Positions 3,311-59,165 of a DNA stretch of 64,000 nucleotides are shown piece by piece. The translations under genes were made by a program, and so were the position numbers. The notes beneath the pieces were generated by a model. It was given only the letters and a program-made list of their open reading frames with translations, did no database searches and was not told where the DNA came from. Source of the stretch: an uncultured Candidatus Saccharibacteria bacterium (GTDB taxonomy: Bacteria; Patescibacteriota; Minisyncoccia; Phycocordibacterales; XYD1-FULL-46-19); the NCBI GenBank assembly GCA_964510655.1, contig CAZEAY010000002.1:26613-90612 (forward strand). The letters run 5' to 3'. Position 1 is the first letter of the stretch, and every line of letters starts with the position of its first letter.

Positions 3311-3343
3311 AAAAAATCTCCACTGTTGGTGGAGATTTTTTTG
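3311..3343 (+). terminator. Rho-independent terminator (aaaaaatctccac tgtt ggtggagattttttt)
   Basis: An inverted repeat TCTCCAC/GTGGAGA is followed by a T-tract. Confidence 0.7.
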
Positions 3344-3386: not shown

Positions 3387-3395
3387 TGATATAAT
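3387..3395 (+). promoter_or_regulatory. Extended -10 promoter element (TGaTATAAT), 7 nt upstream of the pilB ATG. It implies a leaderless transcript.
   Basis: A TGnTATAAT consensus sits at 3387-3395 and the ATG is at 3403. There is no SD in between. Confidence 0.5.
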
Positions 3396-3402
3396 AAGAC
3401 TA

Positions 3403-5157
3403 ATGAATATTGATCAGGATCAATTAATCAGTTTTTTAACTGATACTAAACTTGTTTCGGCTGATGATATAAAAAAATCTCAAGCTTTAGCGGCTGAACA
3501 AAAAAAGACTTTGTCGGAAATTTTAATTAGTGATGGAAAAATTTCTGAAGATGATTATCGTCGAGTGAATGCTTATCTAATTGGTATTCCTTTTGTAGAC
3601 TTAAAGACCGAAAAAATTGATAAAAGTATTTTATCTCTTATCCCTGAACCAATTGCCAGAAAACACAATATTGTCGCTTTTGGTAAAAAGGACAATGATT
3701 TGGAGGTGGCCATGCTTGATCCTCAAGATCTGGAAGCGATTGAATTTATTAAAAAAAGCTCCGGCTTACGAATTCTTCCACGTCTCACAGACACCGAATC
3801 TATTAAAAAATCCCTCGTTCAATATCAAAAGAGTTTGAAGGCTGAATTTGGCGATATTATTCAAAAGGAATCTCTAAATGTGGGCCAAGATGGGGGTTTT
3901 GACGGAGTGTCTCTTGAAGGGGAAACTGATCTGAAAAAATTGGCTGAAGATTTGCCTATTGTGCGGATTGTTGAAACTCTGCTTACTCATGCCATCATGC
4001 AAAAAGCCTCAGATATTCATATTGAAATCTATGAGAAAGAGTTGGTGGTCCGCTATCGCATCGATGGTATTTTGCATGATGCTATGATTTTACCTCGGAA
4101 CATCGCCGCTGGTATTATTGCTCGGATCAAGGTTTTGGCTAATCTTCGCCTTGATGAAAAACGTTTACCGCAAGACGGGCGATTCAAAATGGAATTATCT
4201 GATCAAAATGTCGCTTTCCGGGTTTCTATTTTACCTACTTATTATGGAGAAAAAGTTGTTATGCGTTTGTTGCCAGAGACTGTCCATGGATTTACTTTGG
4301 AAACATTGGGCTTTCATGGAGCATCTTTGGAAAAAATACATGAGGCTACTAGAGCGGCGACCGGGATGATTTTGGTTACTGGTCCAACTGGTTCGGGAAA
4401 GTCCACCACCCTCTATACTTTGTTAGAAATTCTTAACACTCCCGATGTAAATATCTCTACTATTGAAGATCCAATTGAATATCAAATACCGCGAATTAGT
4501 CAAACTCAAGTTAAGCCAGATATCGGTCTAACTTTTGCTAATGGGTTAAGATCTTTAGTCCGTCAGGACCCCGACATTATTATGGTTGGGGAAATTCGAG
4601 ATAAAGAGACCGCTAATTTGGCGATCAATGCTGCCTTGACTGGACACTTGGTTTTGTCTACTTTGCATACTAATTCCGCCGCCGGAACTGTTCCTCGTAT
4701 GCTTGATATGGGGGCGGAAGCCTTTCTTCTTGTTTCTACGATTAAAGTTATTGTTGCTCAACGGCTGGTGAGAAAGCTCTGTCCATCAAAAGAAGAGTAC
4801 CACTTAACTAAAGACGAATTGGCTAAACTATCCCTTCATGTTGACATGGACCGTGTTTTACAAATTTTGAAAGAGGAAAATATTATCGAACCTAATGTCG
4901 GTTGGGATAAGGTGCCTTTTTATAAAAATATTCCATCAGCAGAATCAAAAGATGGTTTTGCTGGTCGGGTCGGAATTCATGAGGTGTTATCTCTAACTTC
5001 TTCGATTAAAGATATGATTATTAAGGGTTTAACGACCGAAGAGATAGAATCTCAAGCTAAGAAGGAGGGAATGATGACAATGATTGAAGATGGTGTCTTT
5101 AAGGCTGTTCAAGGTATTACTACGATTGAAGAAGTGTTACGTGTCGTTACGGAGTAA
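3403..5157 (+). CDS. pilB: Type IV pilus assembly ATPase PilB / GspE family
   Basis: It has a GspE N-terminal domain, the Walker A motif GPTGSGKST and the conserved motifs LSTLHTNSAAGTVPRMLDMG and MVGEIRD. Length is 584 aa. Confidence 0.9.
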   Translation: MNIDQDQLISFLTDTKLVSADDIKKSQALAAEQKKTLSEILISDGKISEDDYRRVNAYLIGIPFVDLKTEKIDKSILSLIPEPIARKHNIVAFGKKDNDLEVAMLDPQDLEAIEFIKKSSGLRILPRLTDTESIKKSLVQYQKSLKAEFGDIIQKESLNVGQDGGFDGVSLEGETDLKKLAEDLPIVRIVETLLTHAIMQKASDIHIEIYEKELVVRYRIDGILHDAMILPRNIAAGIIARIKVLANLRLDEKRLPQDGRFKMELSDQNVAFRVSILPTYYGEKVVMRLLPETVHGFTLETLGFHGASLEKIHEATRAATGMILVTGPTGSGKSTTLYTLLEILNTPDVNISTIEDPIEYQIPRISQTQVKPDIGLTFANGLRSLVRQDPDIIMVGEIRDKETANLAINAALTGHLVLSTLHTNSAAGTVPRMLDMGAEAFLLVSTIKVIVAQRLVRKLCPSKEEYHLTKDELAKLSLHVDMDRVLQILKEENIIEPNVGWDKVPFYKNIPSAESKDGFAGRVGIHEVLSLTSSIKDMIIKGLTTEEIESQAKKEGMMTMIEDGVFKAVQGITTIEEVLRVVTE

Positions 5158-5245
5158 CGGCACAATTTCGAATGTCAGATGTAAAATTAAAAATGAAATA
5201 CGATTTGGTGTATCTTATTTGACTTTTGACATTTGAAATTTGTAA

Positions 5246-6469
5246 TTGAAATTCATGTTATTTAAAATAAAAGCACAAAAATCTAATGGCGAAATTGTTG
5301 AGGGGGTAAGGGAATCCTCTGATAAATTGATGCTCTCTCGTGAAATGCGGGCCGAGGGTTTGGCTCTATTTTTTGCTGAAGCTCTGCATAAGACTGAACC
5401 CTCGGGCGGTTTTTTTCGAGGATTATTTAAAAAAGTTGGATTAAAAAATAAAATAGTCTTTGCTAGTAACTTAAGTTCGATGATTTCGGCCGGTCTGACT
5501 CTGTCTCGGTCTTTAGAAGTTTTGGAAAGGCAAACCTCGCAAAAGTATTTTAAAGGTGTAATCAAAGATTTACTGAGAAGAGTTACGACTGGAGAGAGTC
5601 TCAGTCAGGCACTTGAGGCTTATCCATCTGTGTTTCCTCCTGTTTTTTCGGCGATGGTGGGGGCAGGTGAAGAATCTGGTAATCTACCTAATTCTTTGTC
5701 AATCATCAAGGATCAAATGGGTAAAACCTATGAATTAAAAAGAAAAATTACTGGTGCCATGATTTATCCGACAATTATTGTCTTACTCATCATTGTTATC
5801 GGAATTTTGATGATGGTTTTTATGGTCCCAACTCTTTCAGCCACCTTTAAAGATTTAAATGTTGCCTTGCCTCTATCGACCAGGATGATTATTGGAGTGA
5901 GTGATTTTTTAAAGAACCATTATCTGGTTTTTGCCCTGGCTGTAATTTTGGTGGTGACTGTTTTCAGTTTTTGGCTCAAAACTCCAAAAGGTAAAAAAGC
6001 TCTAGATTTTGTTGTTCTGCGGCTGCCTATTTTTGGTAATTTGGTCAGAGAATATAATTCCGCGGTTATCATGAGGACGATTTCGTCTTTAATTACAGCT
6101 GGAGTAAGTATGACTAAATCAATTGAAATCACTGGTAACGTCATTCAAAATTCTTTTTATAAACCAGTCATGGTTGGAGCCGTTACTGATATCCAAAAAG
6201 GTATTTTACTCTCAGCTGTTTTTGAAAAACAAGAAAAACTTTTTCCCGTTTTTGTGTCTGAGTTGGCAGAGGTTGGTGAAGAGACTGGAAATTTGCCACA
6301 AATGCTTGAGAAGGGGGCGGTCTTTTATGAAAATGAGATTGATCAAGCGACAAAAAATCTTTCAACAATTATTGAGCCTCTTTTGATGATTGTTATTGGG
6401 GCGGCCGTTGGATTTTTTGTGGTGGCAATGATTGGTCCAATGTATAGTCTTACATCGGCAATAAAATAG
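5246..6469 (+). CDS. pilC: Type IV pilus inner-membrane platform protein PilC / GspF family
   Basis: Two GspF repeats and three TM segments give a PilC-like architecture (407 aa). It lies directly downstream of pilB. Confidence 0.85.
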   Translation: MKFMLFKIKAQKSNGEIVEGVRESSDKLMLSREMRAEGLALFFAEALHKTEPSGGFFRGLFKKVGLKNKIVFASNLSSMISAGLTLSRSLEVLERQTSQKYFKGVIKDLLRRVTTGESLSQALEAYPSVFPPVFSAMVGAGEESGNLPNSLSIIKDQMGKTYELKRKITGAMIYPTIIVLLIIVIGILMMVFMVPTLSATFKDLNVALPLSTRMIIGVSDFLKNHYLVFALAVILVVTVFSFWLKTPKGKKALDFVVLRLPIFGNLVREYNSAVIMRTISSLITAGVSMTKSIEITGNVIQNSFYKPVMVGAVTDIQKGILLSAVFEKQEKLFPVFVSELAEVGEETGNLPQMLEKGAVFYENEIDQATKNLSTIIEPLLMIVIGAAVGFFVVAMIGPMYSLTSAIK

Positions 6470-10389: not shown

Positions 10390-10445
10390 ACTAATTATTA
10401 ATTTCTTGCTTGATCGGGCAGACAAGTTGAAGTTTTAAACTTAAA

Positions 10446-10485
10446 CCCCTGAAAAACACCCCTTTGGTGTTTTTCAGGGGTTTTC
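10446..10485 (+). terminator. Strong rho-independent terminator (cccctgaaaaacacc ccttt ggtgtttttcagggg tttt)
   Basis: A perfect 15-bp inverted repeat is followed by a T-tract, ending the pilus operon. Confidence 0.85.
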
Positions 10486-10494
10486 TGTTATAAT
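10486..10494 (+). promoter_or_regulatory. Extended -10 (TGtTATAAT), 8 nt before the tpiA ATG. It implies a leaderless tpiA-pgk transcript.
   Basis: TGnTATAAT sits at 10486-10494 and the ATG is at 10503. Confidence 0.5.
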
Positions 10495-11264: not shown

Positions 11265-12415
11265 TTGATTTAAAGTCAAAATTAATTACTCGGGTAAAAA
11301 ATCTAAAAGGTAAAAGAGTTTTACTCCGGCTTGATTTGAATGTGCCAATTAATGAGGGCGGTCAAATTGAGGATGCTTTTCGGGTGGATATGGTTATCCC
11401 AACGATTGAATTTTTGGTTAGTAAAAAGGCCAAGGTAATTATTGTTAGTCACCTTGGAGCTGATGGTAAACAAAGTCTGTCTCCAGTCGTGGCTTATTTA
11501 GGTAAACATTTTAATACAGCTTTTTTCCCAGATCTTGATAATTTATTTCACATCGAGGAACTTAAAGATGGTGAAGTAGCGATTTTAGAGAACATCAGGC
11601 GAGCAGAGGGGGAAATGACTAATAGCCTCAAGTTATCTAAAGAGCTGGCTTCACTTGCTGATATCTATGTTAACGATGCTTTTTCGGTGTCTCACCGCCC
11701 CCATGCTTCGGTTGTGGGAGTGGTGAAATATTTACCGTCTTATATTGGACCACTGTTTTTTAGAGAATACGAGAATCTGGTTAAAGCTTTTAAGCCCACT
11801 CATCCCTTTGTTTTTATTCTTGGTGGCTTAAAATTCCAGACCAAGATTCCTTTGTTAAAGAAATTTGTGACTAAGGCTGATTCAATTTTTATTGGTGGGG
11901 CCTTGGCTAATTCTTTTTTTAAGAAACTTGGTTACGAAATTGGAGAATCTGTTTTTGATTTGAATTCCGCTGGTATGACTGATTTTTTGAAAAACCAAAC
12001 TATTAAGCTTCCTCAAGATGTTGTGACCGAAAAACATGGTGATGTCTTTGTTCGATCAATTATGTCGGTAAAAACAAAGGAGTCGATTGTGGATATTGGT
12101 CCAGATTCCCTAGATTTGATTAAGGAGGAAATAAAACAAGCCCGTTTTATTCTTTGGAATGGTCCTCTGGGAAATTTTGAGAAAGGATTCAATAAGGGGA
12201 CACTGGAATTGGCACGAACAATTGCGAAGAGCAAAGCTTTTTCCTTGGTTGGAGGAGGTGATACTATTTCTGCTATTGCTGATCTAAAACTGGAAAAAGA
12301 ATTTGATTTTGTGTCTACGGCTGGGGGTGCTATGCTAGATTTTTTGGCAAATGGCACATTGCCGGGAATTGAAGCCATTAGTAAGTCAAAAAGCAAAAAG
12401 CAAAAAGCAAAATAA
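11261..12415 (+). CDS. pgk: Phosphoglycerate kinase
   Basis: A 4-nt ATGA overlap with tpiA. PGK N- and C-domain motifs are present (RxDLNVP, GGGDT-like GGGDTISA, GGGAMLDFL). Confidence 0.9.
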   Translation: MIDLKSKLITRVKNLKGKRVLLRLDLNVPINEGGQIEDAFRVDMVIPTIEFLVSKKAKVIIVSHLGADGKQSLSPVVAYLGKHFNTAFFPDLDNLFHIEELKDGEVAILENIRRAEGEMTNSLKLSKELASLADIYVNDAFSVSHRPHASVVGVVKYLPSYIGPLFFREYENLVKAFKPTHPFVFILGGLKFQTKIPLLKKFVTKADSIFIGGALANSFFKKLGYEIGESVFDLNSAGMTDFLKNQTIKLPQDVVTEKHGDVFVRSIMSVKTKESIVDIGPDSLDLIKEEIKQARFILWNGPLGNFEKGFNKGTLELARTIAKSKAFSLVGGGDTISAIADLKLEKEFDFVSTAGGAMLDFLANGTLPGIEAISKSKSKKQKAK

Positions 12416-12441
12416 AAAAACGGCCAACTGGCCGTTTTTTT
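12416..12441. terminator. Bidirectional rho-independent terminator (aaaaaaa cggccaactggccg ttttttt)
   Basis: A palindrome is flanked by an A-tract and a T-tract between the convergent pgk and HIT genes. Confidence 0.8.
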
Positions 12442-12802
12442 ATGATAAACAGTCTATTATTTTTTTGGCATTAGTTGGGAAATCTTTTTTGTTTCCAATT
12501 ACTTTATTGTCTGGATAGACCCAAATGTGGGCGTGGGGAACCTCTTCTCCAATAATTTTAGCTAAGACAAAGTCGGTGGAAAAGGCTTTTTTCTGAGCTA
12601 CGGCAATTTTTCGAGCCACCTCAAAATAGTCACCCGCGTTTGGTACATCCCAGACCCAAGGGTAATGAGTTTTTGGTATGACTAGAGTGTGTCCGGGAGA
12701 GAGAGGATTGATGTCAAGAAAGGCTAAAAAATCTTTGTCTTCATAGACCTTGTGAGAAGGTATTTCCCCTGCAATTATTTGGCAAAAAATGCAATTGTTC
12801 AT
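12440..12802 (-). CDS. HIT-family nucleotide hydrolase (histidine triad)
   Basis: C-terminal motif PHAHIWVYP (HxHxH-type), a CxxC-containing N-terminus typical of HIT/Hint proteins, 120 aa. Confidence 0.7.
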   Translation of the reverse strand: MNNCIFCQIIAGEIPSHKVYEDKDFLAFLDINPLSPGHTLVIPKTHYPWVWDVPNAGDYFEVARKIAVAQKKAFSTDFVLAKIIGEEVPHAHIWVYPDNKVIGNKKDFPTNAKKIIDCLS

Positions 12803-12844: not shown

Positions 12845-12987
12845 ATGAATCCCGTGGTAGAAAATCGGCCTCGTTGGGAATAAGTCTTCGGGAAACAGTA
12901 TGAAATTAATCAGTAATTACTAATTTAATAAAGATGGCATAAAAGAATCCCACCAGGATAATGCCATTTTTCACTAACGGGATGAAA
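12845..12987 (+). repeat. Conserved ~140-nt leader element, copy A (upstream of and overlapping the recJ start). It includes hairpin ATGGCAT-N20-ATGCCAT (12934..12967) and the motif CACTAACGGGATGAAA.
   Basis: It shows about 75% nucleotide identity over its whole length to 26188..26330, upstream of rplC. This includes a perfect 7-bp palindromic stem whose 3' arm contains an ATG. Confidence 0.6.
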
Positions 12988-15204: not shown

Positions 15205-15240
15205 ATAATTTCAAATTTCAAATTAAAAATTACTAATTGA

Positions 15241-15265
15241 AAAACCGCCCAGTGGGCGGTTTTTG
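15241..15265. terminator. Bidirectional terminator (aaaaccgccc agt gggcggttttt)
   Basis: A GC-rich palindrome flanked by A- and T-tracts sits between convergent rnhA and speH. Confidence 0.8.
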
Positions 15266-15271
15266 CTTTGT

Positions 15272-18196: not shown

Positions 18197-18262
18197 TTTT
18201 TCTTGTGTAATTTTGGAAATCAGGTAATATTTTTTTAGGTCTAGAATAAAGGAGGTTTTTCC

Positions 18263-18496
18263 ATGAAGTTCTTTGTACTCGGATTGTTCTGTCTTTTGAT
18301 GGCCTTGGGAGTAAAGCAGCTCCAAAAACTGACTCAGGCGACATCTTTTCCCGGACAAATTCCCAAGGGGATGTTGGTCCAGACCCAGTCCTGTTTGCCG
18401 GCTTCACTGCGGACCTTTCGCCGTCGGCACAAGCTGACTAGAAAGGAAAGATGGAGAGGTCCCTTTGAAGAGACGTTCTTTGTTTGGATGTATTAA
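18263..18496 (+). CDS. Small secreted protein (77 aa, signal peptide). SD-led gene with higher GC.
   Basis: A strong SD AAAGGAGG sits at 18248-18255. It has the signal peptide MKFFVLGLFCLLMALG and a basic C-terminus, and is followed by a terminator. Confidence 0.45.
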   Translation: MKFFVLGLFCLLMALGVKQLQKLTQATSFPGQIPKGMLVQTQSCLPASLRTFRRRHKLTRKERWRGPFEETFFVWMY

Positions 18497-20550: not shown

Positions 20551-20637
20551 AATTAAATTATAAATTAAAAATGTAAAGTTAAAAATTAAGATCTTAGATT
20601 TCATTTCTAATTTCTAATTTTTAATTTCTAATTAAAT

Positions 20638-22788: not shown

Positions 22789-22832
22789 ACTAATTAGAAA
22801 TTACCAATTCCAAATTAAAAATTAAATTCACA

Positions 22833-22913: not shown

Positions 22914-22922
22914 TGTTATACT
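22914..22922 (+). promoter_or_regulatory. Extended -10-like element (TGtTATACT), 7 nt before the ATG of ORF 22930
   Basis: It has the same promoter-abuts-ATG geometry as pilB and tpiA. A TTGACT also lies 13 nt upstream. Confidence 0.4.
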
Positions 22923-25113: not shown

Positions 25114-25509
25114 TTGACCCTTAAAAAAATGCCCACAACCGCTACAACTAAAACCAAAAAAGTTACCGCTAAGGCGAAAGCTAAACCAGAGGTTGAAAAA
25201 GATCTCTCCCGCCTTCGTATTAAGGTATCGGCTTATGAAAACAAAATTCTTGATGCTTCCGTCAAGCAGATTGTAGACACAGCTATGCGGTACGATGGTA
25301 AAGTTAGGGGACCAATACCTCTTCCAACCGAGATTAAAAAATATACGGTTAATCGCTCTAGTTTCATTGATAAAAACTCTCGTGAGCAATTTGAAATGAG
25401 AATTCATAAGCGGGTAATCGATATTGTGAGTCCATCTCCAAAAATTATCGAAAATCTCACAAACTTAAATTTACCATCTGGTGTCAATATCGACGTTAAG
25501 ATGATGTAA
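25114..25509 (+). CDS. rpsJ: 30S ribosomal protein S10, with a Lys/Thr/Ala-rich N-terminal extension
   Basis: The S10 core RIKVSAYENKILD...VRGPIPLPT... is present. An approximately 30-aa basic N-terminal extension precedes it. Confidence 0.85.
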   Translation: MTLKKMPTTATTKTKKVTAKAKAKPEVEKDLSRLRIKVSAYENKILDASVKQIVDTAMRYDGKVRGPIPLPTEIKKYTVNRSSFIDKNSREQFEMRIHKRVIDIVSPSPKIIENLTNLNLPSGVNIDVKMM

Positions 25510-25513
25510 AACT

Positions 25514-25540
25514 AAAAAACCGCCTTCGGGCGGTTTTTTA
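25514..25540. terminator. Bidirectional terminator (aaaaaaccgccttcgggcggtttttta)
   Basis: A GCCGCC...GGCGG-type palindrome with a TTCG loop, flanked by A- and T-tracts. Confidence 0.85.
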
Positions 25541-25551
25541 GTTTCTTTCTA

Positions 25552-25995
25552 CTAATCACTGATATTAAATATCGCCATAATTAATCTAGCTAAAAGTCCA
25601 CGTTTTTTCTTTGGAGCTTCTTTTTTTTCTATTCCACCACCTCCTCCATTCATACTTTGGTTGAGAGAAATTTGATTATTTATATTAATACCACTAGAAT
25701 CAGAATTTTTGTCTTCAGGTTTAGATTCTGGTGTGATTCCTCTGATTTCACCTTTCAATTGTTCAATTCTTTCTCGCCTTTCTCCTTCTAGGTTTGTTTG
25801 TGGTATCTCCTCTGTCTCCATGTGTCCATCGGGGTTTTCTGGAGGGGTTAGATTATCATTTTCAGGATTTTCTTGTTCTGTTTCGGTCGCATTTTCAGGT
25901 TTGGCGAGACTGCTCATGTCAACTATCTCTGCCCCATCTTGCCCCTCTTCTTTTACTTCTTCTTGATGGGGTTTAAAATTTTCCGCTGAATTCAT
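25552..25995 (-). CDS. Acidic, low-complexity (Glu/Pro/Asn-rich) hypothetical protein with a basic-hydrophobic C-terminus
   Basis: It is a 147-aa ORF with a strongly biased acidic composition. It sits on the opposite strand, wedged between rpsJ and rplC. Confidence 0.4.
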   Translation of the reverse strand: MNSAENFKPHQEEVKEEGQDGAEIVDMSSLAKPENATETEQENPENDNLTPPENPDGHMETEEIPQTNLEGERRERIEQLKGEIRGITPESKPEDKNSDSSGININNQISLNQSMNGGGGGIEKKEAPKKKRGLLARLIMAIFNISD

Positions 25996-26187
25996 ATTGA
26001 TTGTGGTTAGCTAATTCATTAAATTATAGCATGATAGTCCTTCTTGTCATCAAGGAAGGGGATATAAAGATATCGTAAGAGTTTGGTGTTTGACTTTTTT
26101 CGGTTATTTGATAGTATTATCCCAAGCTCGCTTAGGGCTCTTGTTTTTTGTACGGAGCACCTAATACCATTTAAATAAAGCATTTCT

Positions 26188-26330
26188 ATGAATCCCGTGG
26201 TATTAAATGGCATCGTTGGGGACATAGGAAAGGGTGGAGCTGAATCAATTAAGTAAATTAACAAATTTTAATATAGATGGCATAGGAGAGTCCCAACCGG
26301 ACAATGCCATTTTCCACTAACGGGATGAAA
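26188..26330 (+). repeat. Conserved ~140-nt leader element, copy B (upstream of and overlapping the rplC start). Hairpin ATGGCAT-N20-ATGCCAT at 26277..26310.
   Basis: Collinear ~75% identity to 12845..12987, ending in the identical ...AATGCCATTTTyCACTAACGGGATGAAA. Confidence 0.6.
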
Positions 26331-28818: not shown

Positions 28819-28830
28819 TTAACTCAACTA

Positions 28831-28860
28831 AAAATACCCCTAAAAATAGGGGTATTTTTG
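28831..28860 (+). terminator. Terminator after rplB (aaaatacccctaaaaataggggtattttt)
   Basis: A TACCCCTA/TAGGGGTA stem with a T-tract. It interrupts the normally contiguous rplB-rpsS junction. Confidence 0.75.
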
Positions 28861-28933
28861 ACATATACTCCCACCACTTGCTTTTTATATCTATATATGG
28901 TATAATATAAGAAGGTAAAAAAGGAGTAGTTCC

Positions 28934-29212
28934 ATGAAAAAGTATCTAGGTTTGGTTTTTCTGATGTGTCTGGTGGTATTGACCACCACGGGCTGTGCTT
29001 TCTTTACTCAGGATCACAGTGCCTACCTTCGAGAAAAACAGAAGATTCGTCAGGATCAAGGTGTTGGTCAAGTTGCCTCCTACGAATCAAATCGGTTGGC
29101 AGATCGAGAGCCTGTGACTTCAGGACTCATTGATCTGTGTATCGATATCGTGGCTTATCAGCGGGTAGTGAGGGATTGTTCTTCTTCCTCCACCACTTTG
29201 CAGGGTGAATAA
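28934..29212 (+). CDS. Small lipoprotein (signal peptide with lipobox LTTTG|C). SD-led gene with higher GC.
   Basis: An SD AAGGAG sits at 28921-28926, 7 nt before the ATG. It has MKKYLGLVFLMCLVVLTTTGC and is 92 aa. Confidence 0.5.
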   Translation: MKKYLGLVFLMCLVVLTTTGCAFFTQDHSAYLREKQKIRQDQGVGQVASYESNRLADREPVTSGLIDLCIDIVAYQRVVRDCSSSSTTLQGE

Positions 29213-29226
29213 CTTGACGACATGTA

Positions 29227-29262
29227 GCCCCCCTCAACCCTTTGGGTTGGGGGGATTTTTTA
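29227..29262 (+). terminator. GC-rich hairpin terminator (cccccctcaaccctttgggttggggggatttttt)
   Basis: An imperfect C6AACCC/GGGTTG6 stem followed by T-tracts. Confidence 0.6.
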
Positions 29263-29339
29263 TCCCCCCTTTTTTTATTGAGATAATTCTTCTCCGTGTT
29301 AAAATAAAAGGAATTTTACTAATCTATTAATTTTATTTT

Positions 29340-29807
29340 ATGTTGTTGGAAGCTTCACCCGTCATGATGGAGAATAAACCAAATATTTTTCGTCGCTGGG
29401 CGAGTCTCATCACTCTTTTTATTTTTATTTCGATTTTTAGTTTTGCCGCCTTTAATTATTTTTCTGGTTCTTCTCTAACAGCTGGTTTGTTTAATACCTC
29501 GGCTTATTGTAGTGATGATAAAGGAAATTCGGCGGTTATTCTGTATAACGGTATGCCGGTTGTGAATGTTGTCACTAAGCTAGTTGGAGAATCATCTACT
29601 ATCAAAAAAATTACTTACACTGATTATTTGGGAGAACTAAAAATTGTAATGGATCCCGTAGCGGCTGATCCTATTTTGGTTACTAATATAAAATCTGCCA
29701 TGACTAAAGCGGTCCAAAATTTAACAAAAGAGCAGTCTCTTAAGATAATTGAATTTTCGGCTACTAAATTTGTGACTGCTCCCTTTAAGTGCAAGTACAC
29801 TAAATAA
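29340..29807 (+). CDS. Hypothetical membrane-anchored protein (155 aa), upstream partner of the giant secreted protein
   Basis: An N-terminal TM helix (ITLFIFISIFSFAAFNYF), then a soluble domain. A 3-nt gap separates it from the next ORF, which suggests coupling. Confidence 0.45.
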   Translation: MLLEASPVMMENKPNIFRRWASLITLFIFISIFSFAAFNYFSGSSLTAGLFNTSAYCSDDKGNSAVILYNGMPVVNVVTKLVGESSTIKKITYTDYLGELKIVMDPVAADPILVTNIKSAMTKAVQNLTKEQSLKIIEFSATKFVTAPFKCKYTK

Positions 29808-29810
29808 TTT

Positions 29811-32800
29811 ATGACTAAAATTAAGTATTTTTTATTGAGTTTCCTGCTATTGTTTCCGTTTTTTGTTTCTGCCGTTGATGTTTTTACCACTAGTTACTTA
29901 AAGGAAAAATATCGACAGACTTATGCCACTTGTGGAGTTAAAGCTGTGCCTGGGAGCGATACTGTCCATGATTTGGGTCCCGTTGACAGTTATGGTCAAT
30001 GTTCTGGCTCCTATCCCGACGGATTGGCCGCCGACGCTTATTTGCCTGGTTGCAACCCAATAGCAGGAGAAACCTGGGGGCCTTGGGAGGGTCAGCTATT
30101 CCATGAAAAATCCGGGGCCACTTATCGTCCAGAAGAAATACATCAAGGTTCTACTGCTTATTGTGGTGTGGGCGTAATTAAGTGTGGGGAAGGCTTTAAT
30201 TTCAATGGGGTCACTATGACTGGTGATTATTGTAAGGCTCCGTACATCAAAGATGGTTTTTTTAGTAAGGATGGACAATATGTTGATGAATACTGTATTG
30301 ACTATCAAGCTCCGACTTTTTTAGGTAAATATATTACAGATGGAACAAAAATGGTTCAGTCTTGTTGCACTTCTTTAGCTCACCATGAGACTCACACTTT
30401 TCCTATTATCGGAGATGTAGCCAATGTATTGAGCCAGTGGAACTTGCCGCTGGCTGGAAATTTGGCCGCCGGGGTAAACAGTGCTTCACCGGTAGATTTG
30501 GTTAATAAGGCTAGTTACGATGAATGCTGTAAGGCTCCTGACCAATGTTATGAATTTGGTTTTAATGTGATTAACGCTAGCTTCGCCTTAATAAATCCTC
30601 CATCCACAGGGGCGGCCATCTTAATGACAATGGCTAATAGCATCTTAAATTCGGCGACGGGAGAAATTGGTAAGTATAAAAATCAAGTCTGTCGTTCAGC
30701 TGAACAATCTCAAAATGATCAAACTGCCGCCTCTTATATTGATGATGCTGCCACAATTACCAAACTAGTTAACACTTCTGGGGTAACAGATGTTTTAGCT
30801 AATATAACTTTCTATTTAAGAATTTTACCTACTTATAATAAATGTGGTGGTGGTTCTGCAAAAAATAATTCACCCAAGACTGGTCTCCTAGCCACAACGC
30901 TTGCTTCTAGTGATACTGTCTCAGGTTTCTCATTTACTCCCGAGGCTGCGGCTGGGGGTAAGAGCTGTTCCTTTAAGGTGGTAAAAGGTGGAGTGGATAC
31001 AAACCAACGTGTTTATGTTGCCAATAATTATGTTTTTTTGGATAGTCCAACTTTGAGTTTGAATTCTTCAAAACTCTTTAACAATCAGCCTGGTTACTCC
31101 ACCTCAATGTTAGAAAGAGCTAGGCAGATGGTTAGTCCAGCCATTTACACCCCTAATAAAACTTCTTGGTATTGGAATGGAATTAAGTTTGTTCAAGTAG
31201 ATGATCCTCTGACAGCCTTAAATTTGAATGTTATTTATGCTGGTGTCTCTGCGACTTCACCCGATTTCTTTAATTGTAATGTCAATGATATTCCGAATGT
31301 CGGTCATAGTAATTTGTTTAAAACATTTTTAGCCACTGCTCCAAGTTTATCAATGTGTCCAGTCATTAATTATGGTGATGCTAATAATGACAATCTTAAT
31401 AATTGGACGGACGTTCAGTGTTATCTAAATTTGTTAGGGGATAAGAGTTCCCCCGCCTGTAATCCAGATAAAAAATTAATGGCCTTTAATGACAATAGCG
31501 GGACTGTTATTACTGTCAATGACCTTATGAGAGAGTTGCATGTTATGTCTGACCCCAATCAGCTTATTTATTACAGTTCTGTTAAAAAATATTTAGCTGA
31601 GTCACCTTATAATACAAACTTGCAGTCATGCTTGTTTGGTCGCAATCCAAAAAATAATACATCTTTATTTTCTCCAGCCTTGCCAGATGTTGTGTATAAG
31701 GCGGTCTGCGGAAATAAACTAATTGAAGCTGGTGAGTCGTATGAAACCTGTCCCGCTGATGTGCCGGCACCGGTTGTTAATCCTACCCTCACCTTGATTC
31801 CCTCATCTGGCCTCACTCTTTCTCGGGGTGGAGTGCAGGTTTCAGCAACCACTACTCAATCTCTAGCAAATAATTCCGCAATCTCTTTAACTGCCACTAT
31901 ACCAGCTTCAACTTATTCATCTCGAGCTAGTTCGGTCTCTAAAAAAATCACCTGGACAGGAGTTGATCAAACTATTTGTCCACCTAAGACTGTTGATTGC
32001 AAAATAACCAGTGGAACAGTTTCTTGTTTAGCTCTTACTTCCACTTGTAACTTTACCCTTACTAAAAACACAACAATCCAGCCCAAGTTAGTTCAAATGG
32101 TTGGTATTCAGATTCCTGATACTCCTGCAGTTACTAATTTCACCGCCCCCACTTTTGACTATGGTGCTGGTCAACCATCTCATCGTCTCTGGTTAACCTT
32201 CAATGCCACCGGCTCAGTCAGTTCAATCACCAAGGTCCCTGGTTATGATAAATGCTTTAGCTTCACTGCTTCAACTGATACTGCCTCAGCCGCTTGTCCT
32301 CTTAACCAGCCTATTAAACCTGGTACTAAGTGTGGTATCTACTTACAGGCTAGTAGTGATCGTTGTGTCGTAGCAGTTAAATATCTAACTGGTACTAACA
32401 CGACTAATACTCGTTACTTTGAACAAATCTTCTACAATTCCACCCCTACCACTACGGGGAAAGATACGATTAAGGATCGGGGGACTCGAGCTCCGTCGCC
32501 AGATGATTTTATTCCAGTGGTCCTAACTTCTCCTGTGCCAACGCCAACACCGATTCCTGCGCCAGCTCCTGCTACAAGTCCAACTCCAGTCGTTAATTAC
32601 GCCCTCTCCCTCATTCGTCCTACTACTGGATCTCTAGCTTTCTACTCTTCTCTCAAACTTGTTGCCGCTGATATTACCACCTCTCTGCCAGCTGGCACTA
32701 AGGTTGATCTAAAAGTGAAACGCTCTCCAACTACTCAATCGGGAAGTTCCAGAGCCACTGGTTACAAACTTCGCGTGAACTGGGCTGGCACTTCTTGTCC

Positions 32801-33368
32801 AGAATCAATCACAGACTGCAGTGTTTCACCAGCGGCCATCACTTGTCCCGCGATTGAAACTACTTGTCTCTTTGACTTAACTAAAGATACTCGTGTAGCT
32901 CCTTCATTTACAGCAACACCCGAGTATCCCATCGATACCACCCCTAAAACCCTAACCCTCTCCGTTAACAACCAATCTACTGGCTACATTATCGGTAGCA
33001 AAGACATGGCTGCTAATCCCGTAGAATTCAACTGCGGTCAGGTGGAAGAAATTGGTAATGCTAAGATCTGGCCTGGCACAGCTTGTTCCCAAACCTATCC
33101 TCATGGAACAATTATCACTTTAGTGGCTTCTGTCCCCGGTAATCTCTCTGATGGTAAATCACTCACTCGTGGCACCTTCTCTGGCTGGGGGAGTAATTGT
33201 ACCTCGATGACCACTTGGACTGATATTACTGGTAAATCCTATCAAGCCTGTCAAATCAAACTTGAGGCTAACAAAACCATTTCTGCTTCTTTTACGGGAC
33301 CGACTTCGTGGTTGCTCCGGCCGTTTATCCAGCTCGGGAATATTTGGAACTCATTGTGGTCACGGTAG
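29811..33368 (+). CDS. Giant (1185 aa) Cys-rich secreted protein with internal 4-Cys repeat modules, a Pro/Thr linker, and a C-terminal domain shared with ORF 49365..52550
   Basis: It has the signal peptide MTKIKYFLLSFLLLFPFFVSA and many paired Cys. It has two internal repeats (CPPKTVDCKITSGTVSCLALTSTCNFTLTKNT and CPESITDCSVSPAAITCPAIETTCLFDLTKDT). A linker PVPTPTPIPAPAPATSPTPV follows. The C-terminal ~120 aa (NQSTGYIIGSK...FNCGQVEEIGNAKIWPGTACSQTYPHGTIITLVAS...) is homologous to the C-terminus of the 1061-aa protein. Confidence 0.7.
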   Translation: MTKIKYFLLSFLLLFPFFVSAVDVFTTSYLKEKYRQTYATCGVKAVPGSDTVHDLGPVDSYGQCSGSYPDGLAADAYLPGCNPIAGETWGPWEGQLFHEKSGATYRPEEIHQGSTAYCGVGVIKCGEGFNFNGVTMTGDYCKAPYIKDGFFSKDGQYVDEYCIDYQAPTFLGKYITDGTKMVQSCCTSLAHHETHTFPIIGDVANVLSQWNLPLAGNLAAGVNSASPVDLVNKASYDECCKAPDQCYEFGFNVINASFALINPPSTGAAILMTMANSILNSATGEIGKYKNQVCRSAEQSQNDQTAASYIDDAATITKLVNTSGVTDVLANITFYLRILPTYNKCGGGSAKNNSPKTGLLATTLASSDTVSGFSFTPEAAAGGKSCSFKVVKGGVDTNQRVYVANNYVFLDSPTLSLNSSKLFNNQPGYSTSMLERARQMVSPAIYTPNKTSWYWNGIKFVQVDDPLTALNLNVIYAGVSATSPDFFNCNVNDIPNVGHSNLFKTFLATAPSLSMCPVINYGDANNDNLNNWTDVQCYLNLLGDKSSPACNPDKKLMAFNDNSGTVITVNDLMRELHVMSDPNQLIYYSSVKKYLAESPYNTNLQSCLFGRNPKNNTSLFSPALPDVVYKAVCGNKLIEAGESYETCPADVPAPVVNPTLTLIPSSGLTLSRGGVQVSATTTQSLANNSAISLTATIPASTYSSRASSVSKKITWTGVDQTICPPKTVDCKITSGTVSCLALTSTCNFTLTKNTTIQPKLVQMVGIQIPDTPAVTNFTAPTFDYGAGQPSHRLWLTFNATGSVSSITKVPGYDKCFSFTASTDTASAACPLNQPIKPGTKCGIYLQASSDRCVVAVKYLTGTNTTNTRYFEQIFYNSTPTTTGKDTIKDRGTRAPSPDDFIPVVLTSPVPTPTPIPAPAPATSPTPVVNYALSLIRPTTGSLAFYSSLKLVAADITTSLPAGTKVDLKVKRSPTTQSGSSRATGYKLRVNWAGTSCPESITDCSVSPAAITCPAIETTCLFDLTKDTRVAPSFTATPEYPIDTTPKTLTLSVNNQSTGYIIGSKDMAANPVEFNCGQVEEIGNAKIWPGTACSQTYPHGTIITLVASVPGNLSDGKSLTRGTFSGWGSNCTSMTTWTDITGKSYQACQIKLEANKTISASFTGPTSWLLRPFIQLGNIWNSLWSR

Positions 33369-33438
33369 TTTGAATAAAAATTTTAAGTTAAAAAAAGAAC
33401 CCCAGGTGGTAATCCTGGGGTTTTGTTTATCCTTTGGT

Positions 33439-33945
33439 TTATGGCCAGCTAACCTCTTGGAAGATCTCGGTTTTCTTGATTAGAGTCTCTTCCTCAATTT
33501 CTTTTAGTACTCCGTCTGTTGTGGGCTGTTGCTTACCTTGGGTGGTTTGGGAAATGGCGCAGGTCGGTGCCCCATTTTCATCGAGACTCCCGTAGTCGAT
33601 TATGTGCCAACCTTCTTTCTTTAGGGCTACAATCTCGGTAGGAGTGAGGTAGGCTCCGAGGATAATGTTAGTTCGGTTATTTTGAATGTTCATTACCCAC
33701 CAGAAGGTGTTTTTGCGGTGTTTGGCCCTACCCCAAGCGGTGACATGTCCTTTTTCCAGGTGAGCATTGGCTCGGCTGTAACTGGTGTGGACTTGTCCCC
33801 AGTTTAGCCTAATAAAGTCAGGCAAAGGGTTCGTTATGGGGCTAAGATTTTTTGTCTGTATTTCGTTGGTATCCACCAACGGCTTAGCACAACTGCACCA
33901 CAGCATAATGCCTAGAAATAAGGCTAAAATGCCTAACTTGCTCAT
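33439..33945 (-). CDS. Hypothetical lipoprotein/secreted protein (168 aa), function unknown. It may be cell-wall related.
   Basis: It has the signal peptide MSKLGILALFLGIMLWCSC (lipobox-like) and a His/Trp-rich core (HVTAWGRAKHRKNTFWW). Confidence 0.4.
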   Translation of the reverse strand: MSKLGILALFLGIMLWCSCAKPLVDTNEIQTKNLSPITNPLPDFIRLNWGQVHTSYSRANAHLEKGHVTAWGRAKHRKNTFWWVMNIQNNRTNIILGAYLTPTEIVALKKEGWHIIDYGSLDENGAPTCAISQTTQGKQQPTTDGVLKEIEEETLIKKTEIFQEVSWP

Positions 33946-34394
33946 TGGCGGGCTCCTTATTTGTGAAATGAGACCTAATTATTTAGGATCTTCTTTAATT
34001 ATACCACAATTTGTTAAAAAGTACAATAGAAAGGTGGTTCTAATCCCTTTTTTACTTACAATCTTTCCACCTAAAAGAGGTGCCTTCTGGTGAATTGTTC
34101 AAGATATTGCTTTGTTTGACATTATTATTTTTTTTGCTATGATTAGGTTCGAGTTAGTTTAGTGTTATTTACTATTAACTCGATTTGCAAAAGTCTTGTT
34201 TTTCTGGGACCCCTATCGAGGTTCGATATCCGTGTGCTCAGTCGGGAGGCGGATGGACCGTGGTATAGGATTTTTATTTTGCGATTTTTATTCGTAAAAA
34301 TCGCGTCCGAATCAGCAGATTCGCGGCTTGGCCGCAGGATGGTTGTTTCGATGCAAGGATATAGATAAATATTAAAGAAAAATAGTTTAATTCA

Positions 34395-42212: not shown

Positions 42213-42299
42213 ATTCTATTGAAGAAACCTAGGTCGGGTATATACTTATCTTTAGATGCCCTGGGGTATCTATCAAAAAACACAAAAGGAGTCTGATCT

Positions 42300-42467
42300 A
42301 TGTGTCAGAGATGTCTCCAGAAACCGGTTAAACCTGGTAATAAGCTCTGTCAATCGTGCCTCCAGAAGATTGTGGAAGAGCGGAAGCAGAGAGACCAGAA
42401 GCGTAAAGCTTTTAGGCACCAGAAGGTTGATCATCACGGCATTCGTTTGCCCGATGATGATAGATGA
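42300..42467 (+). CDS. Small (55 aa) zinc-ribbon protein (CxxC-N11-CxxC) with a basic tail. SD-led gene with higher GC, not in the ORF track.
   Basis: An SD AAGGAG sits at 42286-42291, 8 nt before the ATG. The ORF MCQRCLQKPVKPGNKLCQSCLQK... lies between two terminators. It is shorter than the track's 60-aa cutoff. Confidence 0.45.
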   Translation: MCQRCLQKPVKPGNKLCQSCLQKIVEERKQRDQKRKAFRHQKVDHHGIRLPDDDR

Positions 42468-42543
42468 GGGGGCCCGGAATGATTTGAACAAATCTATTTC
42501 GGGTCTTTTTCTTTGTCCTGTTTGGGTGCTATAATCGCTGTAT

Positions 42544-44568: not shown

Positions 44569-44695
44569 CTGTGGTTATGTCTTTTCAGCATTGACTTATT
44601 GATAAAAATATGATACACTAAATAAAGTAAACAATTATGCTCTTATCGGGCATTTTTAATTTTTAAAGACCTGGTCTTTGAAAAGGAGCACAGGT

Positions 44696-45031
44696 ATGAA
44701 TCTCACACGGGTTGAATTGTTGTGTATTTTGATTTTGATTACCGCCTCTTTGTTGCTGGTGGGCAGAATCAATTCACCAAAGAAACCAGTAGTACTCGGC
44801 GGTCTTGAACCGTCAGCTGAGATGCTGATTGTTCACCCTCCTCCACCTAAGGTGAAGGATTTTCATGAGACGGCCATGCCGCGGAACACCTCCGCCTCTC
44901 TTCCTGAGATCGACCCGACCGAGGAGAAGCTGAACAAGCTGGGACTTAGTCTGGTTGGAGGTTCCACTATGAATCTGTCTGGGTTGAGTACTAATACTTC
45001 TGCCACGACAGCGTCGTTACCCGTCCACTGA
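44696..45031 (+). CDS. Small secreted/membrane-anchored Pro/Ser/Thr-rich protein (111 aa), on a high-GC islet
   Basis: An SD AAAGGAG sits 7 nt before the ATG at 44696, and an inverted repeat AAGACC/GGTCTT lies just upstream. It has an N-terminal TM helix. G+C is clearly above the window background. Confidence 0.5.
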   Translation: MNLTRVELLCILILITASLLLVGRINSPKKPVVLGGLEPSAEMLIVHPPPPKVKDFHETAMPRNTSASLPEIDPTEEKLNKLGLSLVGGSTMNLSGLSTNTSATTASLPVH

Positions 45032-45087
45032 CCCGATGATTATCATTTGGTCATAAATTTCACCCCGTTGAAGATAAGGAGCTCACG

Positions 45088-46245
45088 ATGAAGCGGAGTT
45101 TGTTGGGATTGCTTTTCCTGGCCCTGTTTTTGGGACAGATGTCCTGGGCGGTGGAGCTTACGGCTCCCAAGCCCATGACCACTGATACGATTGACGTGCG
45201 CAACATTGCGCGCGCCATCCTGTCTCATCAGGATACTGTTGCCTACAGTGGTAACTTCGGCTACGAAGTGACCCATCTGGATGGTAATGTGGTTTCGACA
45301 CAGGGCACGTTTGAGGGGCGTTATTTCCCCAAAGACGGTCGGGAAATCTTTATGTTTACCGCATTGTCGGTATCATACGACGGGAAGAACCCCATCATTT
45401 ACACCGGTGATCCGTTTGAGGTTTTTCCCTATCCGATGAAGGGGACGGCGAAAAATCTCTGGATCGGAATCAATGGTTTCGACCAGAACGGCCAACCGAC
45501 TCGCTATGGCTCTTTCGCCACCTCAGTGTGGGAGAAAGGTCAACCAATCATCTTTGGAATGAGGCCTGGCTATCTGCCGGTGATCATTCCTTTCAGTTTG
45601 AATGGTCGAGACCCAGCCGGTGTGGGTTTGATCATTGATGGTTGGGGTGGAGTGCCCTTTGGCTATAGCTCAGACCGTGGAGGTTTTGTGGCCTGGCTCG
45701 ACCCATCCACGTTGTACGGCGGTCGAGTTGTCGACTTGTTCAATGGACAGGCGACAATTTTGACTATCCCCAGTTTCAGTTACGGTGATCTGCCATCTTC
45801 AACTGAACCACGTGGTAGCATCGCAAACTTTCAGTGGGAAAGTGGCGTGAACTCGATTAAGTTCGAGAAAGGCTTCTACGACCCTCGTGGCGATGGACAT
45901 TACAATACGTCCATTGTTGAGGAGGGGAAACTTGTCCCGGCCGCAGTGTATATTGTGGAGCCGGGAGATCTGCAGACTTCAGCTCTGTACGGTGCCTTGT
46001 TGGACTTCGCTGGGCGGCTTCAAATTGAAGTTTTTACCGCTCCCGGCCAACGTCTGGTACTGTTGGATAAGTCGTGGAGTAGTCCTTCCCAGGTTCTCAA
46101 CTTTGAGGTGCCGGCCGGCTATCATTCGGTTATGATTACCGTGACCAAATCGAACGGTCCGGTGGCTATTCCCGAATGGTATGTCTGGGACCCGAACAGG
46201 TTTTACCTGATGGTGGGACGCAGTGGCCAGGGTGGAAAGGGCTAG
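45088..46245 (+). CDS. Secreted protein of unknown function (385 aa, signal peptide), on a high-GC islet
   Basis: An SD TAAGGAG sits 6 nt before the ATG. It has the signal peptide MKRSLLGLLFLALFLGQMSWA. G+C is about 50-55% by eye, versus roughly 38-40% for flanking genes. Confidence 0.6.
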   Translation: MKRSLLGLLFLALFLGQMSWAVELTAPKPMTTDTIDVRNIARAILSHQDTVAYSGNFGYEVTHLDGNVVSTQGTFEGRYFPKDGREIFMFTALSVSYDGKNPIIYTGDPFEVFPYPMKGTAKNLWIGINGFDQNGQPTRYGSFATSVWEKGQPIIFGMRPGYLPVIIPFSLNGRDPAGVGLIIDGWGGVPFGYSSDRGGFVAWLDPSTLYGGRVVDLFNGQATILTIPSFSYGDLPSSTEPRGSIANFQWESGVNSIKFEKGFYDPRGDGHYNTSIVEEGKLVPAAVYIVEPGDLQTSALYGALLDFAGRLQIEVFTAPGQRLVLLDKSWSSPSQVLNFEVPAGYHSVMITVTKSNGPVAIPEWYVWDPNRFYLMVGRSGQGGKG

Positions 46246-46666: not shown

Positions 46667-46711
46667 TTGGGAATTTTGATTTTACCTGGTTTATTGTTAC
46701 AATTTAAGACA

Positions 46712-49201: not shown

Positions 49202-49211
49202 ATAAAATAAT

Positions 49212-49238
49212 AAAAACCGCCTTATGGCGGTTTTTTTG
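49212..49238 (+). terminator. Terminator (aaaaaccgccttatggcggttttttt)
   Basis: A CCGCC/GGCGG stem with a T-tract. Confidence 0.8.
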
Positions 49239-49364
49239 GTTATCATTTTGGTTATCCACCCCCCACTTTTTTTGTCTATCTGTTAAACGGGTGTATACTT
49301 GGGTTGTCGATAAAATTCGACAACTCATTTTAATAATTTTTAATTTTTAGTTTAATTTAATAAT

Positions 49365-57669: not shown

Positions 57670-57866
57670 AACAATTCCTTTCTGTGTCTCATGATCAGAG
57701 ACCGACCAGGCTGTATATAGGTTACTTGTCTATTTTTTATGGTATACCTTTTGAAGGTAAAGTAAAGATTTATGAAGATATTTTTTCTGGTCAGTTTTGC
57801 GTGACTTATGTTTTTTCATGATATATTTAAGACAGGCTAAGTACATTACATAAGGAGAATCTCAAA

Positions 57867-59084: not shown

Positions 59085-59094
59085 TCAAGAAAAA

Positions 59095-59122: not shown

Positions 59123-59165
59123 TTTTTCTGTAAAATCCCCACCATTTTTTTGGTCAGAAGAGTGC

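Follow-up and report, generated by a model that had tools for sequence, protein, structure and literature searches.

Gene content of the window

We analyzed how transcription and translation appear to start in a 64,000-nucleotide (nt) stretch of DNA, positions 26,613 to 90,612 of contig CAZEAY010000002.1, the whole of which is called the window below. Two features are in question: extended -10 promoter boxes that abut the ATG codons of pilB and a few other genes, and Shine-Dalgarno (SD) motifs that precede a small, GC-richer set of genes. The window has a GC content of about 40%, uses the standard genetic code, and carries genes for transfer-messenger RNA and tRNA-Ile(UAU). Pfam searches bore out the gene names given in the initial annotation: pilB, pilC, pseudopilins, tpiA, pgk, recJ, rnhA, comEC, rpsL, rpsG, fusA, tuf, the S10/spc ribosomal cluster, secY, adk, map, ndk, smpB, infC, ftsH and truB. 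The pilB orthologues with 60–69% identity all came from metagenome-assembled genomes of Patescibacteria/Paceibacteria (Nomura-, Taylor-, Vogel- and Zambryskibacteria and "Paceibacterota"). No gene for L30 was found between rpsE (S5) and rplO (L15) in the window, and absence of L30 is described in the literature as a hallmark of the candidate phyla radiation (CPR). The window is a piece of the chromosome of one of the Paceibacteria (Parcubacteria, CPR), an ultra-small bacterium. The contig measures 116,858 bp, and its proteins are singletons in a collection of 15 billion. Exact matching of pilB, rplB and the 385-aa secreted protein described below returned no record, and rpsS matched only one contig of 2.5 kb that stops where the insertion next to rpsS begins.

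Seventy genes of the window were scored, of which 37 were called promoter-proximal and 31 operon-internal by the operon rule of GeneMarkS-2. For comparison we fetched 174 loci from relatives, among them 80 loci anchored on pilB (L001–L080) and 80 metagenome loci anchored on rplB. The relatives include independent assemblies from NCBI, ENA, JGI and Logan.

Promoters that abut start codons

The initial annotation had placed extended -10 boxes 7–8 nt upstream of the ATG codons of pilB, tpiA and the open reading frame (ORF) at 22930, and a direct read-out of the sequence returned the same positions and gaps (Table 1). The equivalent box before adk had been missed, and a fifth precedes a DUF2238-like gene. 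Our search was anchored on the promoter motif TGnTA[TC]A[AC]T rather than on gene calls, with a cut-off of at least 60 codons for an ORF. The window contains 14 such sites, and at 5 of them an ATG opens an ORF after a gap of 7–8 nt. At gaps of 0–6 and 9–26 nt after the same 14 sites no ATG started an ORF long enough to pass this cut-off, and no SD motif was found in the 7–8-nt gaps between boxes and start codons. A scan for paired -35 and -10 hexamers missed these promoters because they lack a -35 element. The boxes of pilB and tpiA lie directly 3' of the two strongest terminator hairpins of the region, at 3311–3341 and 10443–10483. The 237-amino-acid (aa) protein encoded at 22930 had no Pfam match.

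The same positional peak was present in the relatives. Among the 80 pilB-anchored Paceibacteria loci, 113 sites led to 30 ATG-started ORFs at gaps of 6–9 nt, against about 1 per gap elsewhere, and the start codons at gaps of 6–9 nt were ATG in 30 cases, GTG in 1 and TTG in 2. A -10-like hexamer stood at gaps of 6–9 nt before 0.9% of 1028 internal ATGs. About 40% of the pilB orthologues share the geometry seen in the window, while in others the -10 box lies farther upstream and four have a GGAGG SD. We observed the same architecture at orthologues of DUF2238, LDcluster4, NUDIX and pgi. In the relatives L089 and L086, the DUF2238 layout of the window is kept, and the -10 box of adk lies 26–30 nt upstream of the gene, which gives a leader without an SD. 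Orthologues alternate among leaderless, leadered and SD-led forms.

The arrangement of a -10 box abutting an ATG is thus genuine and has been kept throughout the lineage, and promoter geometry makes leaderless transcription the best interpretation for the genes concerned. The initial annotation had spoken of widespread leaderless mRNAs. The architecture it described stands, but "widespread" is too strong: the leaderless-type layout was found at 5 of the 37 promoter-proximal genes, or at 6 if smpB (TGTTAAGAT) is counted, which is about 15%.

SD motifs mark a GC-rich, promoter-proximal minority

Eight genes of the window carry an SD motif 6–9 nt before the start codon, where shuffling predicted about 1.1. 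All the SD genes that the initial annotation had listed were verified, although the response regulator gene starting at 57669 on the minus strand has only AAGGA. Duplex energies of the window's SDs ranged from -5.6 to -12.3 kcal/mol when paired with a canonical 16S tail. At 42300, the ATG opens an ORF of 55 aa with paired CxxC motifs, rather than the longer overlapping ORF at 42256–42534.

The claim that the SD-bearing minority has a higher GC content held at third codon positions. GC content at these positions (GC3) averaged 0.528 in the 8 SD genes and 0.347 in the other 62 (Mann-Whitney p=6e-9), and the six genes of highest GC3 in the window are all SD genes. GC1 and GC2 were nearly equal between the two sets, so that the shift is one of third codon positions. 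Promoter-proximal genes account for all 8 SD genes, and an SD precedes not one of the 31 operon-internal genes. The SD genes have leaders of 20–70 nt and -10 promoters of their own, most of them extended. They encode a secreted protein of 385 aa, small proteins with a signal peptide or lipobox, the CxxC peptide of 55 aa, an acyl-CoA delta-9 desaturase and a response regulator. We considered a link between SDs and secretion and rejected it, as four large signal-peptide proteins (at 1600, 29811, 49365 and 52735) have no SD.

The SD motifs appear to have been maintained. Before the small ORF at 44696, AAGGAG is kept in four of four genomes; before the gene for the ~400-aa protein at 45088 it is kept in three of the four, with a weaker AGAAAGGG in the fourth. 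The motif holds its fixed 6–9-nt spacing in these four genomes while the encoded proteins are only 45–60% identical and the flanks have diverged. The GGAGG found in some relatives stands before pilB, a core gene. Conservation of the motifs between orthologues that have otherwise diverged suggests that SDs are probably still read in the host, whose ribosome most likely has a usable anti-SD. A 13-mer in L003 that resembled 16S sequence was tried as a candidate and was not ribosomal RNA (rRNA) by Rfam.

Table 1. Coordinates of initiation signals, SD-led genes and associated elements in the window; the last row gives examples from relatives.
Feature	Position	Strand	Details
Extended -10 TGATATAAT	3387–3395	+	no -35; 7 nt 5' of pilB ATG 3403; candidate leaderless promoter
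pilB (T2SSE ATPase)	3403–5157	+	by Pfam; candidate leaderless gene; N-terminus kept in 80 orthologues
Heptamer array ATTTGAA x5.4	5217–5253	+	at pilC start
Extended -10 TGTTATAAT	10486–10494	+	8 nt 5' of tpiA ATG 10503; tpiA by Pfam
AAAAACCGCC/GGCGGTTTTT hairpins	12409–12445, 15233–15269, 25508–25544, 49205–49241, 59090–59126, 62020–62056		
Further heptamer arrays	15207–15224, 22792–22824, 49334–49353		
SD AAGGAGG	18249–18255	+	77-aa signal-peptide ORF 18263–18496; GC3 0.58
Two heptamer arrays, rpsG–fusA spacer	20555–20589, 20603–20633	+	SD-free, non-leaderless mode
Extended -10 TGTTATACT	22914–22922	+	7 nt 5' of ATG 22930
rplB–rpsS insertion	28819–34394		5.6 kb; four accessory genes, including two SD genes
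-10 TGGTATAAT and SD AAGGAG	28898–29212 (extended -10 28898–28906, SD 28921–28926)	+	92-aa lipoprotein-like ORF 28934–29212; GC3 0.44
Cassette with -10 TGGTATAAT and SD AAGGAG	33439–34014 (extended -10 ~33998–34006, SD 33953–33958)	-	168-aa lipoprotein-like ORF 33439–33945; GC3 0.53
Cassette with TATACT -10 and SD AAGGAG, secY–adk	42230–42467 (SD 42286–42291)	+	55-aa CxxC...CxxC ORF 42300–42467; GC3 0.50
Extended -10 TGCTATAAT	42527–42535	+	8 nt 5' of adk ATG 42544
Two-gene SD unit	44611–46245	+	extended -10 TGATACACT 44611–44619
Unit gene 1, SD AAGGAG	44683–44688	+	111-aa ORF 44696–45031; GC3 0.55
Unit gene 2, SD AAGGAG	45076–45081	+	385-aa secreted protein 45088–46245; GC3 0.59
Extended -10 TGTTACAAT	46695–46703	+	8 nt 5' of ATG 46712 (DUF2238-like gene)
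Weak SD AAGGA	57676–57680	-	response regulator 57289–57669; GC3 0.61
SD AAGGAG	57852–57857	+	acyl-CoA delta-9 desaturase 57867–58721; GC3 0.44
Heptamer arrays in relatives (examples)	L063 2963–2993, L143 9968–9998, L095 11811–11842		

The core is SD-free and partly preceded by heptamer arrays

In agreement with the initial annotation, which had noted no purine-rich SD before core genes and giant secreted proteins, we found none 5' of tuf, fusA, rpsG, rpsL, secY, smpB and pilC, nor before the genes at 1600, 29811, 49365 and 52735, which encode large secreted proteins. Its further proposal of two translation-initiation "dialects" did not survive, as there are more than two modes: 55 of the 70 genes are neither leaderless nor SD-led, including tuf, fusA, rpsL and rpsG, all ribosomal protein (r-protein) genes, secY and the large secreted proteins. 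In this majority class the 14 nt upstream of the start are depleted of G (2–16% G), with A at -3 (62%) and -6 (67%) and also at -9 and -14.

The same was true of the relatives. We collected 285 alignment-anchored starts of r-protein genes and tuf from about 70 of the 80 rplB-anchored loci, spanning GC3 values of 0.2–0.86. An SD-like pentamer at 4–11 nt was present at 1 of these 285 starts, compared with 11 at control spacing. SD-free translation of the core is therefore a property of the lineage and not of this genome.

Some SD-free, non-leaderless genes start just behind arrays of heptamers. In the spacer between rpsG and fusA, an array of ATTTCTA repeated 4.4 times ends 4 nt 5' of the fusA ATG at 20638. 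Across 1.52 Mb we counted 104 period-7 arrays versus 11 in a locally shuffled control, an enrichment of about ten-fold, and most of them were intergenic. The arrays have a modal length of 4.4 copies (~31 nt) and are A-rich and G-poor on the sense strand. Of 65 intergenic arrays, 33 end no more than 10 nt from a start codon, r-protein genes included, and 13 of the 285 anchored starts carry a period-7 array, versus 0–1 for other periods. The unit differs by genome and by gene (ATTTCTA, GTCAATT, CTAGAAG, TAACTAC, AACTAAA and others), with CTAA, ACTA and TAACT cores recurring. These arrays may be an SD-independent initiation element.

SD genes vary in presence, motif and GC3 among relatives

Several SD genes were present or absent between close relatives. 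L089, a relative with core proteins 85–98% identical to those of the window, lacks between its secY and adk genes the cassette that surrounds 42300 here, a unit of promoter, SD and ORF measuring about 290 nt. Likewise, L095 and L096, the closest relatives by rplB, do not have the 5.6-kb insertion that separates rplB from rpsS in the window; their gap is 201 nt. The S10 operon is broken at two fixed junctions, rpsJ–rplC (25510–26324 in the window) and rplB–rpsS, and these breaks recur across L095–L174. In relatives the rplB–rpsS gap ranges from 28 nt to 4.4 kb and the rpsJ–rplC gap from 7 nt up to 8 kb, and the inserts are unrelated accessory genes, often including SD-led ones. Together the two junctions form a hot spot of insertion, seen lineage-wide, in an operon that is universally conserved in other respects. 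The gaps frequently hold a gene on the opposite strand, behind a leaderless-type promoter, for a membrane protein of ~270 aa.

The association of SDs with deviant composition extends beyond the window. In L001–L080, an SD was present before 4 of 10 high-GC3 outlier ORFs and 9 of 282 others (Fisher p=4e-4), with no excess at control spacing. We also regressed the GC3 of individual genes on that of the host, using 1720 ORFs from about 165 loci. SD genes gave a slope of 0.60 and an intercept of 0.26, compared with 0.94 and 0.02 for non-SD genes. Chance matches could make up roughly half of the 52 ORFs classed as "strong SD" in this regression, a point against the reading favored below. The GC3 of SD genes was offset by +0.10 to +0.17 in low-GC hosts and by -0.07 in the highest-GC hosts. 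Such offsets, positive where the host is GC-poor and slightly negative where its GC is highest, are what one would expect of genes taken from one shared pool (GC3 near 0.65) and partly ameliorated.

The desaturase provides a single-gene example. Its best matches, at 58–62% identity, were on CPR-type contigs, followed by enzymes of Myxococcota and Acidobacteriota at about 50%. The orthologue in L093 has a strong SD and high GC3, whereas that in L090 has no SD and a near-host GC3, and the contrast looks like an amelioration series. The desaturase is O2-dependent and forms a divergent pair with the response regulator (57289–58721), here in a CPR genome, and the pairing is kept on the CPR-type contig L090.

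We tried two specific donors. High-GC Paceibacteria with general SD use were rejected as a source: SD use of core ORFs was not correlated with genome GC3 (Spearman 0.17, p=0.14), and r-protein genes are SD-free at every GC level. A phage origin was likewise rejected, as two of the SD proteins had no relatives in IMG/VR.

Interpretation and alternatives

We favor a joint reading, to which we give a probability of about 0.6, in which the core is SD-free, start sites fall into three classes, and the SD genes come from an exchanged pool of higher GC. In the first class, a -35-less extended -10 box (TGnTATAAT) lies 7–8 nt 5' of the ATG in roughly 15% of promoter-proximal genes, so the transcript would begin at or within 1–2 nt of the AUG, and ribosomes would presumably bind the 5'-terminal AUG as they do in Actinobacteria and Deinococcus. 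In the second, the genes inside operons, along with the other leadered core genes, would start on G-depleted, A-rich regions, some of them behind heptamer arrays of ~31 nt, through a structure-poor, SD-independent initiation resembling that of Bacteroidia. The third class would consist of SD-led accessory genes as self-contained units, each with its own promoter, a leader of 20–70 nt and an AAGGAG 6–9 nt before the ATG. Such units would have arrived from a horizontally exchanged, higher-GC pool with their own ribosome-binding site, which they would lose only slowly.

A number of observations weigh against this reading. For any single gene behind an abutting -10 box, a leader of 1–2 nt or a more distant promoter is possible. 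With regard to the ribosome, neither the window nor the 174 loci contained rRNA, and searches there for a 16S 3' end or 16S signatures were empty. The anti-SD motif CCTCCT has been reported in only 48% of Parcubacteria, and its loss overlaps a subgroup that lacks uL1 (Tsurumaki 2022); in one relative with a 45088 homologue, nusG–rplK is followed by a deoxycytidine monophosphate deaminase gene and not by rplA. With regard to origin, no donor lineage was found for the SD genes, and three of the four homologues of the 385-aa protein, those with readable contigs, lie amid Paceibacteria-type genes. There was no integrase or transposase Pfam domain in or beside the cassettes and there were no flanking repeats, and the tRNA gene at 61896 is not adjacent to them. 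Viral relatives were also missing, with no match in IMG/VR for two of the SD proteins.

A further objection comes from the gene pair at 44696 and 45088. The pair is syntenic in the window, L089 and L086 (ndk ... DUF2238–RNase J-like), has another context in L081, and keeps its SD and a GC3 above that of the local core in four genomes whose core GC3 runs from 0.28 to 0.55. Simple recent import does not predict this, and import is therefore not proven. Such stability is what one would expect if the SD-led, GC3-rich genes were instead a native, vertically inherited regulon, such as one of surface proteins made under particular conditions, whose SDs and GC-rich codons are kept by selection, for instance for leader control or separate tuning of translation. 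The host-type extended -10 promoters of the SD genes and the signal-peptide or lipoprotein-like nature of most of their products would also fit a built-in partition of this kind. We nevertheless consider it unlikely. It does not account for a GC3 that falls 0.07 below the core in the highest-GC hosts and regresses on host GC3 with a slope of 0.6, or for cassettes that come and go between near-identical relatives, and the functions are mixed (desaturase, response regulator, zinc-ribbon peptide, lipoproteins). Moreover, the secreted proteins at 1600, 29811, 49365 and 52735 have no SD and a host-like GC3, and in L090 the desaturase orthologue no longer has either an SD or a high GC3. The initial annotation had left the choice between gene import and a built-in partition undecided. 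The regression, the indels and the insertion sites tip it toward import, and we regard exchange from a GC-richer flexible pool as the favored and somewhat probable origin of the SD genes, short of proof because of the syntenic pair.

A second alternative is that the SD genes occupy resident, hyper-variable loci at which alleles are replaced through natural transformation, with GC-biased gene conversion raising GC3 and the SD being an unrelated ancestral feature. The 385-aa protein gives this some substance, as it is only 51% identical to its syntenic orthologue in L089 amid core neighbors that are 85–98% identical, and is almost equally divergent (47%) from a much more distant relative. Its sequence divergence suggests allele replacement or very fast evolution. 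Pfam had no entry for it, a search of 5.8 billion proteins returned only 4 homologues, and it is a candidate for a hyper-divergent surface protein. The genome also encodes comEC and type IV pilus genes, and the compositional shift is limited to third codon positions. Recombination of this kind leaves unexplained, however, both the co-occurrence of the SD with high GC3 and the SD-gene GC3 below that of the core in high-GC hosts, and we judge it improbable. Least credible of all is an artefact, by which the -10 boxes would be chance matches in AT-rich spacers, the GC-rich SD genes chimeras with another organism that arose in assembly or binning, or both: intergenic DNA is indeed AT-rich, about 3.8 genes would be expected by chance to have a TAnnnT-type hexamer with 5/6 matches at gaps of 6–9 nt, and the window comes from a metagenome-type contig, but the sharp positional peak and near-exclusive ATG recur in the window and 80 independent loci, the SD cassettes are pieces of 0.2–1.7 kb embedded between syntenic core genes, and the pattern is the same in the independent assemblies.

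Comparison with known systems

Genomes that combine leaderless and SD-led genes are already known. In group C of GeneMarkS-2 (Actinobacteria and Deinococcus-Thermus), leaderless genes coexist with genes led by a ribosome-binding site (RBS) (Lomsadze 2018, PMC6028130; Cortes 2013, M. tuberculosis). There the Pribnow box lies 6–8 nt from the start of operon-first genes, and the RBS class sits at the same 6–8 nt (Lomsadze 2018, PMC6028130). The window shares this -10 geometry, the separate RBS class and the strong AUG preference of leaderless starts. In group C, however, non-leaderless genes are generally SD-led, in contrast to 0 of 31 operon-internal genes and 1 of 285 anchored r-protein and tuf starts here. 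Leaderless genes make up 25–50% there versus about 15% here, and SDs are confined here to GC-rich accessory genes.

The SD-less core and the tiny set of strong SDs are reminiscent of Bacteroidia (Baez 2019, PMC6847099; Jha 2021, PMC7797042; McNutt 2023, PMC9976891). The window also matches the G-poor upstream regions, the A at -3 and -6 and the Kozak-like determinants described in SD-less Bacteroidia (Baez 2019, PMC6847099). In that group the anti-SD is present and is sequestered by bS21, bS18 and bS6, proteins whose genes lie outside the window here. Two differences are that Bacteroidia mRNAs are mostly leadered, whereas a leaderless class exists here, and that the rare SD genes of Bacteroidia (rpsU, prfB) are autoregulated core genes, whereas here they are GC-rich accessory cassettes.

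The SD cassettes themselves resemble atypical genes and islets, such as the GeneMark "atypical" class and phage "morons", in their deviant GC3, their own promoter, RBS and terminator, their insertion between conserved genes, and, for some of them, their presence or absence among close relatives. They differ in that no mobility genes, tRNA targets or flanking repeats were found with them, and in that one pair is syntenically stable. Atypical genes are also usually GC-poorer than the host (Lomsadze 2018, PMC6028130), but here they are GC-richer. The heptamer arrays have their closest counterpart in the TAACTGA direct repeats that Beggiatoaceae, Cyanobacteria and Bacteroidetes carry just 5' of start codons (MacGregor 2015, PMC4679880). 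Both have a period of 7 and few copies, end a few nt 5' of starts, including those of r-protein operons, and are not accompanied by a canonical RBS; the arrays described here differ in that the unit is not fixed, the modal copy number is 4.4, and they occur in a CPR lineage. In full-text literature searches we found no paper on CPR in which the provenance of genes is tied to leaderless mRNAs or to SD usage, and confinement of SDs to GC-rich accessory genes appears unreported in this group.

CPR bacteria (Patescibacteria) account for a large share of bacterial diversity, and because almost all are uncultured, their gene expression is known from sequence. If the core never uses an SD and at least ~15% of operons are leaderless, gene callers that assume an RBS would misplace many starts. 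The partial loss of the anti-SD reported in Parcubacteria would gain a functional context, and SDs confined to GC3-rich accessory cassettes would provide a cheap, sequence-only marker of recently exchanged genes. Many of these cassettes encode candidate surface proteins relevant to an episymbiotic lifestyle. More speculatively, Paceibacteria may read SDs almost solely for a horizontally circulating, GC-richer pool that consists largely of secreted and surface proteins, with a wholly SD-free, vertically inherited core that would rely on leaderless AUGs, A-rich regions and the ~31-nt heptamer arrays, the last as a hitherto undescribed kind of ribosome landing site. We hold this broader proposition to be possible but doubtful; if true, the initiation signal would be a lineage-wide marker of gene provenance. 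It also raises the question of how long an imported RBS persists in a host that does not need one.

Other elements in the window

A structured element of ~143 nt with a long-range helix (ATCCCGT...ACGGGAT) ends at the ATG of two genes, recJ (12845–12987) and rplC (26188–26330). The two copies are 81% identical overall and 88% in a 64-nt core. Further copies were found at 6101–6248 in L067 and at 8150–8243 in L170, the latter with one compensatory change, and across copies the element, bounded by the terminal inverted repeats ATCCCGT(T/G) and ACGGGAT, measures ~90–145 nt and has a 5' arm that opens with a short ORF (MNPVV...). The nearest relatives, L095, L098 and L099, lack it, and it belongs to no Rfam family. 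One possibility is an insertion resembling a miniature inverted-repeat transposable element; another is a structured leader that is mobile and hides the start codon.

The tRNA-Ile gene (61896–61969, minus strand) is the only tRNA gene in the window, and its UAU anticodon would read AUA directly. The tRNA-Ile that reads AUA is usually a CAU tRNA modified with lysidine.

Near-alike bidirectional terminator hairpins, AAAAACCGCC-loop-GGCGGTTTTT, recur at the ends of many genes. Two genes for secreted proteins (1185 aa and 1061 aa) are paralogous over their C-terminal ~300 nt (32970–33130 and 52113–52279), with 74–79% DNA identity, which suggests a shared anchoring or sorting domain. Finally, ~370 nt in which no plus-strand ORF is convincing separate a near-consensus promoter (TTGACA, 15 nt, TGCTATACT) from ftsH (58795–59171), and this region may represent either a small RNA or a long leader.

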